Assembly (NCBI RefSeq): GCF_988242995.1
Contig: NZ_OZ547043.1
DNA: 64,000 nucleotides
Strand: one strand, 5' to 3'
The position numbers were made by a program, and so were the translations under genes. The notes below the pieces were generated by a model. That model made no database searches, was not told where the DNA came from, and worked only from the letters and a program-made list of their open reading frames with translations. Within the stretch, counting starts at the first letter, position 1. Each line of letters begins with the position of its first letter. Positions 33,443-33,489 of the stretch are shown here, in pieces.

Positions 33443-33489
33443 TATTGGTTCCTAATTGGTTCCTAATTGGTACCAATTAGGAGCCAATT
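33443..33489. repeat. Direct plus inverted repeats (attggttcctaattggttcctaattggtaccaattaggagccaatt) just past the integrase stop
   Basis: Seen in sequence; two tandem ttggttcctaa copies and a palindromic ttggtaccaa core. Confidence 0.6.

Follow-up and report, generated by a model that had tools for sequence, protein, structure and literature searches.

A stem-loop built from 11-nt repeat units just past int in a PICI/P4-like island of Escherichia coli: a possible terminator or insulator ahead of alpA

In phage lambda, the tI/sib element is an extended hairpin located just 3' of int, where it can terminate transcription and also determines how stable int mRNA is (retroregulation). The Vis, Cox and Apl arrays consist of direct repeats that overlap either the att region or the promoter under their control. 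Gram-negative phage-inducible islands have AlpA as their master activator, a protein that activates its own expression and is induced by a helper, and the interval between int and alpA sets how tightly such an island is silenced. AlpA auto-activation and helper induction have been shown experimentally in EcCICFT073 (PMC6092414).

The window, i.e., the whole 64,000-nucleotide (64-kb) stretch of DNA analysed here, belongs to an E. coli chromosome, and strain LH13-b matches the query region at 100% identity. It carries an island of approximately 9 kb between yejM/tRNA-Pro(GGG) and yejO (Table 1), in which every gene is transcribed rightward in the order int (an integrase according to the annotation of LH13-b, whose record is identical), alpA-like, ash pseudogene, icd-like, DUF4222, DUF927 primase, ssb, ProQ/FinO-family and perC. 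Since this gene order agrees with that of the experimentally studied Gram-negative PICI EcCICFT073, in which int, alpA, icd-like, DUF4222, primase, ssb and perC are likewise found, we classify the island from its sequence as a PICI/P4-like satellite, one in which a late-gene zone is not obvious. The AlpA proteins of both islands are 29% identical. Within the annotated ash pseudogene region, Rfam identified a C4/P4-CI-type antisense RNA (76 bits) and an isrK-like RNA (47 bits, slightly under the 50-bit threshold), and this stretch (34287-34475) resembles a P4-like immunity region. Two clusters of TGGGACA(A/G)GT iterons, each in both orientations, were also observed, one directly after the DUF927 primase gene and the other around 2 kb to the right, which recalls the ori/crr pair of P4.

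Table 1. Coordinates of the features described, given for the window unless another locus is named.
Feature	Position	Strand	Remarks
tRNA-Pro(GGG)	31901-31977		att core at the tRNA 3' end
Inverted 9-mer GACGGTAAC / GTTACCGTC	32069-32077 and 33637-33645		att-int region and alpA leader
TTAGTTATA, left arm	32099-32107, 32111-32119, 32144-32152 (-)		between tRNA-Pro and int
int	32184-33428	+	P4-type tyrosine integrase, 414 aa; ORF; Pfam Arm-DNA-bind_3, Phage_int_M, Phage_integrase; stop codon 33426-33428
A6TT run	33436-33443	+	directly 5' of the hairpin; minus strand reads AAUUUUUU after the stem
Whole stem-loop	33444-33488	+	17-bp stem plus 2 bp; plus strand approximately -28.1 to -28.6 kcal/mol, minus strand -23.2 kcal/mol
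Forward units F1, F2 (ATTGGTTCCTA twice)	33444-33454, 33455-33465	+	exact tandem, 11 nt
Central palindrome ATTGGTACCAAT	33466-33477		perfect, 12 bp; top of the stem
Inverted unit R (TAGGAGCCAAT)	33478-33488	-	pairs with F, one U.G pair
T-rich tail TTGTGTCTCTTTACT	33489-33503	+	candidate weak U-tract; sequence, terminator scan
Second direct-repeat array GTCTCTTTACT GTCTCATTTTG	33493-33514	+	11 bp, GTCTCWTTWCT; adjoins the hairpin
16-mer TTTTATGTTAGAAAAT	33533-33548	+	includes TATGTT, the -10-like part of a weak promoter-like hit
Candidate alpA promoter	33588-33617	+	TTGACT-18 nt-TATTCT; 99 bp downstream of the hairpin
Leader inverted repeat TCACTTT...AAAGTGA	33644-33664		7 bp
alpA-like gene	33692-33883	+	63 aa; ATG at 33692; Pfam Phage_AlpA (28 bits; cut-off 21)
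Terminator-like hairpin TGCCCAAACAGGGGCA then GGTTTTCG	33959-33974		76 bp past alpA
isrK-like RNA	34287-34363		Rfam
C4/P4-CI-type antisense RNA	34388-34475		Rfam
Iteron cluster 1	37369-37505		TGGGACA(A/G)GT
Iteron cluster 2	39658-39790		TGGGACA(A/G)GT
TTAGTTATA, right arm	40826-40834		the attR repeat lies about 75 bp to its right
attR repeat	40902-40924		imperfect copy of the tRNA 3' end; marks the right island end
RAACAAC arrays of EcCICFT073	L074 (E. coli CFT073) 5838-5872, 7188-7247
LexA-box-like palindromes	L061 2455-2510, L063 2428-2480, L071 1935-1995; also L017, L018, L029

Our analysis centred on the block between int and alpA, where the first-pass annotation had described two tandem copies of aattggttcct followed by a palindrome-containing segment, just past the integrase stop and some 200 bp upstream of alpA. 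The tandem repeat is real, as sequence, repeat tools and TRF (period 11, 2.5 copies, 100% match) coincided on two exact 11-nt copies at 33444-33465. The register of the proposed unit was nevertheless off by one base, given that the first copy would start with a T at 33443, and the exact unit is ATTGGTTCCTA. The palindromic segment and the location were also as described, with the block starting 16 nt past the int stop and ending 203 bp before the alpA ATG. Read as an inverted repeat, the block has arms at 33454-33471 and 33472-33489 (18 nt, 94% complementary) or, alternatively, at 33444-33463 and 33469-33488 (20 nt, 90% complementary), and the window allele holds 2.5 direct and 1.5–2 inverted copies of the 11-bp unit. 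The consensus of this unit across alleles is ATTRGYTCCTA. TAATTGGNNCC matched three times in the 64-kb window, with 0.53 matches expected, and all three lay within the block; outside it, neither TAATTGGNNCC nor ATTRGYTCC (up to one mismatch) occurred above chance. No credible small ORFs were found in the int-alpA spacer.

EcCICFT073 resembles the window in this part of the island as well. Approximately 28 nt past its int stop there is a phased array of short repeats (RAACAAC, around six copies, 10-bp, direct and stable in copy number), which is conserved, with a spacer identity of 83–87%. This array is an inverted copy of another one in the att-int region, with which it shares the 14-mer ACAACGTGAAACAA, so that the two arrays bracket int; as far as we know, this arrangement has not been described before. 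Judged by its sequence, the pair is a candidate AlpA/Int site pair. Moreover, an A6-hairpin-TTTG element (-16.6 kcal/mol) lies upstream of the EcCICFT073 alpA promoter, and one allele of it carries a G.U to G-C change. The array and the hairpin of EcCICFT073 are, however, separate elements, whereas the block of the window combines repeats and hairpin in a single element that has no copy near att and is polymorphic in copy number.

Folding of the block as RNA yielded a z-score of -6.9, and none of 200 shuffled sequences was equally stable. All 14 alleles that were folded gave a hairpin anchored on the forward unit, with energies from -14 to -29 kcal/mol, and the plus-strand (sense) RNA was the more stable one in 13 of them (mean of -20.2 vs. 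-17.2 kcal/mol). The extra forward copy of the window lengthens the stem, as reflected by -28.1 kcal/mol compared to -15.4 kcal/mol in strain 042. The block is therefore predicted to be a stable stem-loop on the transcribed strand just past a co-oriented gene, and in its relatives a hairpin is always present between int and the alpA promoter. With intrinsic terminators the block shares a stable stem-loop after a stop codon, preceded by a run of A and followed by T-rich sequence, and, as in such (often bidirectional) terminators, pairing rather than sequence is kept at the top of the stem. It departs from them in that its stem reaches 15–19 bp, which exceeds the usual length in E. coli terminators, has an A-U rich base and is followed by a U-tract that is interrupted or, in type-B alleles, absent; furthermore, the stem is made of tandem 11-nt units whose number varies by strain. 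The terminator scan (at least five T in eight) flagged the window and KY178, and was not passed by strain 042, which has an internal mismatch, nor by E. albertii and AL.H8, which are of type B with a poor U-tract. The tract itself is mediocre (UUGUGUCUC), and poor in the type-B alleles (UUAAACCGC). A d'Aubenton-Carafa-type terminator score was not relied on because it was contaminated by extra pairings. A search of 33429-33691 against Rfam 15 gave no family at E ≤ 1, while the same search found C4 and isrK further right.

Like tI/sib, the block is an extended hairpin just 3' of the integrase gene, but its hairpin stays joined to int in the integrated island, and no sign of RNase III cleavage or of alternative read-through transcripts was seen for it.

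Taking these observations together with the allele comparison below, we tentatively read the block as a stem-loop that serves as a terminator/insulator at the 3' end of int and consists of 11-nt units prone to slippage; we give this reading slightly less than an even chance. Under this reading, a hairpin of 15–19 bp would form in the RNA whenever the block is transcribed with int. It would probably behave as a weak, possibly bidirectional intrinsic terminator and as a protective hairpin at the 3' end, which ends or stabilises the int transcript, and it may shield the alpA control region from transcription that runs on past int, such insulation being its presumed selective value. AlpA auto-activates, uncontrolled expression of alpA is harmful, and its over-expression leads to runaway replication (PMC6092414). 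Because AlpA is self-activating and its over-expression has this outcome, an insulator after a co-oriented int is functionally expected. Canonical terminators are indeed found right after int in Pasteurellaceae islands, and sister E. coli islands carry a canonical terminator ahead of alpA, after an inserted small ORF. Two points are not accommodated: the surplus inverted copies, of which an allele may have as many as four identical ones, contribute nothing to termination, and a role confined to RNA explains neither the 11-bp unit nor the spacing to the promoter in steps of 11 bp. As for its kind, the element belongs to a familiar one and is specific to its lineage. An insulating terminator would be ordinary, yet it would explain how a constitutive int can be placed directly upstream of a self-amplifying switch.

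The conservation of the block was followed in 15 distinct alleles from E. coli, E. albertii and metagenomes, a set that is small and consists of related sequences. An A5–A7 TT run was kept in all 15, as was the forward unit ATT(G/A)G(T/C)TCCTA, present in one or two copies at a fixed distance of 14–15 nt from the int stop. The inverted units varied from one to four copies per allele, with four identical ones in E. albertii, and no allele lacked an inverted unit that matches its forward unit. This also applies to the type-B2 alleles, where the proximal inverted unit has decayed and the distal (tail-adjacent) one still matches. The tail of type-B alleles is replaced by TTAAACCGC... or TTAAATTTC..., and the 10-nt centre also varies among alleles (TTGGTACCAA, TTGGTGTCAG, TTGGTATCAG, TTGACACCAA), the centre of KY178 being the inverse of that of Rb-23.

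On a gapless alignment of the 34-nt core, 93% of the cells pair. Pair 4/31 appeared as GC (6), AU (2) or GU (1), pair 6/29 as UG (5), CG (4) or UA (2), and pair 13/22 as UA (6) or UG (5). Thus, G4-C31 is exchanged for A4-U31 with one G.U intermediate, and U6-A29 or U6.G29 for C6-G29, which means that both arms change together (GC to AU and vice versa, UA/UG to CG and vice versa) while AlpA and Int remain identical. At the top of the stem, the sequence varies and is even inverted between alleles, and pairing persists. We conclude from these comparisons that the property conserved is the complementarity of the arms and not the sequence of the centre, and therefore a stem-loop of the terminator/insulator type fits better than an operator.

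The same data have to be weighed against the proposal that the block is a neutral palindromic minisatellite, in which slippage, inversion and arm-to-arm gene conversion maintain and reshape an AT-rich, self-complementary repeat that plays no part in the expression of int or alpA. Covariation on the core hairpin was not significant, since 58 of 500 shuffles reached the observed score, and a hand count of the mismatched alignment cells revealed no strand bias, with approximately four G.U and four A.C events; consequently, arm-to-arm gene conversion could explain the co-changes without selection on the RNA. Likewise, the flipped centre indicates that the arms recombine, and hence concerted evolution could mimic compensation. 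The highly polymorphic copy number, including the four 100%-identical copies of E. albertii, and the restriction to one island lineage in Escherichia fit a minisatellite too. What this proposal does not predict is that the forward unit and its position remain fixed in 15/15 alleles despite at least three unrelated types of flanking spacer, that a matching inverted unit is never lost, and that the hairpin is the more stable one on the sense strand in nearly all alleles folded. We regard a purely neutral element as improbable. Slippage and arm-to-arm conversion retain a place in the terminator/insulator reading, where the tandem copies would be by-products of replication slippage and of conversion between the arms of a self-complementary repeat.

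Regarding its distribution, a 60-nt block query matched this locus only, in 67 of 5426 E. coli genomes, and no match was obtained in phages or plasmids. Across complete E. coli genomes, species-representative genomes, metagenomes, IMG/VR, phages and plasmids, the block was found at this locus and in Escherichia only; a scan with the exact pattern retrieved three loci from metagenomes and none from IMG/VR, and added no new types. When relatives were traced through Int, the spacer was shared by E. albertii only, and integrases at 73–78% identity were associated with unrelated cargo. Similarity to partly diverged alleles ends just past the block (query 1-112), indicating that the block travels with the int 3' end. 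Downstream of it, at least three unrelated types of spacer sequence occur, and homology resumes at the alpA promoter, whose TTGACT-18 nt-TATTCT arrangement was present in every allele examined. TTTTATGTTAGAAAAT is the only spacer segment common to all types. The GTCTCWTTWCT array comprises two copies in the window, three in OSUCMP42 and 6.2 in KY178 (also L003 3097-3164). As a side observation, the GTTAGAA core of TTTTATGTTAGAAAAT is repeated as a 22-bp array (CCCATTATTTAAAGTYAGAAGA) with one to three copies in type-B alleles (L015 3875-3940). In two strains, ISVsa5 or IS1 has destroyed the 3' part of int or nearly all of it, with the block and alpA left intact (L009 1635-2843; L010 1264-1961).

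The periodicity of the block and its spacer is the main ground for a different explanation, namely a helically phased array of double-stranded DNA sites, on which a factor bound to one face of the helix would control the alpA promoter some 100–140 bp downstream. Candidate factors include AlpA itself (auto-activation), an inducer from the helper phage, or a host nucleoid protein such as H-NS. This is where the suggestion of an operator-like array holds best, inasmuch as the block is a conserved, non-coding array with 11-bp phasing from which control of int or alpA is plausible; each specific proposal made for it failed in the computational tests, as detailed below. At least three units are phased at approximately 10–11 bp, as in an operator array of the excisionase/AlpA-Vis-Cox kind, and the 11-bp unit varies in copy number on both sides (1–2 forward, 1–4 inverted). 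Two further repeat families with 11- and 22-bp periods exist in the spacer. Measured from the first forward unit, the -35 was 133, 143, 144, 164, 176 or 209 bp away (window 33444-33593; alleles L001-L015 and L064-L066), all of them 11n ± 1, and the large indels upstream are multiples of 11, in contrast to indels of 2, 9 and 31 bp in the transcribed leader. The spacer (25% GC) was also autocorrelated at 10–11 bp, and TT recurred with a modest period of 11 bp (p ~0.01–0.03); apart from the repeats, AA/TT periodicity was no more than marginal.

Comparative data add to the case for phased sites. The conserved array past int in EcCICFT073 is also phased, at 10 bp, and type-A and type-B spacers associated with the same AlpA share only the block, the 16-mer, the core promoter and the leader. 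AlpA auto-activation and helper induction are documented with no cis site described (PMC6092414, PMC11773190), and H-NS silences alpA in CP4So, a related Shewanella element (PMC5148205). The AlpA of P. aeruginosa and its binding element were considered as a guide and discarded, being a larger Q-like protein that is uninformative for a 63-aa AlpA (PMC9371919).

Several of the features described above speak against phased binding sites, nonetheless. Unit positions 4 and 6 change in step with the opposite arm next to unchanged AlpA and Int proteins, the central half-sites are conserved in pairing only and not in sequence, and proximal inverted units decay in some alleles. The motif is missing from the att-int region, unlike the array pair of EcCICFT073, and no Ogr/delta or LexA site was matched. 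Moreover, the 11-bp quantisation is perhaps trivial, since all large indels are expansions of 11- or 22-bp tandem repeats, and at 99–142 bp from the -35 the block is far away for a simple operator. With P4 Vis boxes, P2 Cox boxes and 186 Apl sites the block shares short repeats of ~10–11 bp near a gene of the AlpA/Vis family, a comparison in which the P4-like status of the island rests on the C4/CI-type RNA; unlike those arrays, it is inverted, is placed ~100 bp ahead of the promoter and lacks a partner at att. On balance, we consider a phased binding array less likely than the terminator/insulator reading, to which it is the main and a serious rival. Its extended form, in which the block and the 11- and 22-bp arrays together would make up a phase-preserving platform serving as the cis target for a helper signal, AlpA or relief from H-NS, appears doubtful. 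If the platform were real, whole-turn changes in copy number between strains would tune the induction threshold of a PICI-type satellite, and it would provide a concrete DNA target with which to find the helper-encoded inducer.

With regard to integrase and AlpA, the first-pass annotation had also proposed an arm-type array bound by one of these proteins. The Int domain composition, with an N-terminal Arm DNA-binding domain, and the short phased repeats would suit Int arm-type sites or directionality (RDF) boxes of an excisive intasome. The block is, however, separated by 1.47 kb from the att core, which lies at the 3' end of tRNA-Pro, and neither 31978-32183 nor the surroundings of 40700-40925 contained an ATTRGYTCC-like site (up to one mismatch), so that the motif is missing from both att arms. 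If AlpA acts as a directionality factor, boxes near att are expected; EcCICFT073 shows this pattern and the window has no such partner. Protein identity was equally at odds with binding by AlpA or Int, because identical proteins adjoin both the ATTGG..CCAAT and the ATTAG..CTAAT versions. Thus, Int WP_024250198 occurs with ATTGGTTCC units in ECCHD184 and with ATTAGCTCC units in B18271 and GS04, AlpA WP_047668755 with ATTGG in the window and with ATTAG in KY178, and AlpA WP_001201666 with ATTGG in strain 042 and with ATTAG in OSUCMP42. Among the alleles compared, no site variation tracking the Int or the AlpA allele was seen. None of the computational tests supported binding of this type, and arm-type Int sites or RDF boxes of the excisive intasome appear very improbable.

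The att arms are instead occupied by TTAGTTATA, within ~170 bp of the att cores. Four exact copies of this 9-mer exist in the 64-kb window, all of them at the att arms (Table 1), and sister islands possess homologous boxes (TAGCTAYACG). Given this distribution, the TTAGTTATA boxes are likely to be the real Int arm-type boxes or AlpA directionality boxes. An inverted 9-mer, GACGGTAAC / GTTACCGTC, joins the att-int region and the alpA leader, outside the block; it is the only k-mer that the att-int region and the spacer have in common, with ~0.4 expected by chance, and we take it as a lead towards an AlpA box, nothing more. TTACCGT is also found in the alpA leaders of sister islands (L061/L063), whose leader and att-int region additionally have CCGGAWT boxes in common. 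AlpA homologues at 61–85% identity had unrelated upstream regions, from which no common box could be derived, and an alignment with the Salmonella alpA-upstream region was not convincing.

Finally, we considered whether the units are origin iterons or the site of a known regulator (P2 Ogr / P4 delta, LexA). The AT-rich setting with periodic repeats, and a LexA-box-like palindrome right after int in sister islands, are compatible with this idea. Yet the iterons of the island are the TGGGACARGT repeats, which lie elsewhere (Table 1) and are unrelated to the block, no TGT-N10-14-ACA dyad of the Ogr/delta type (TGT-N12-ACA, centred near -55 in promoters of that class) was found in 33380-33720, and CTGT-N8-ACAG was absent from the spacer even with one mismatch allowed. 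Origin iterons and known helper or host operators of this sort are hence hardly credible here, the least so among the explanations discussed.

Apart from the block, the analysis provided several leads: the TTAGTTATA arm boxes, the TGGGACARGT iterons, the inverted RAACAAC arrays flanking int of EcCICFT073 and the 11-bp quantised spacers. In the tRNA-Pro sister islands, TATAAT comes after the palindrome that directly follows the int stop (CTGTA...ACAG), then a small ORF (~77 aa), a canonical terminator and finally alpA, and this sequence arrangement suggests SOS control in that lineage. In the window, the alpA leader contains a 7-bp inverted repeat, and a terminator-like hairpin lies past alpA (Table 1); either one is a possible point of attenuation or antitermination ahead of the immunity region.
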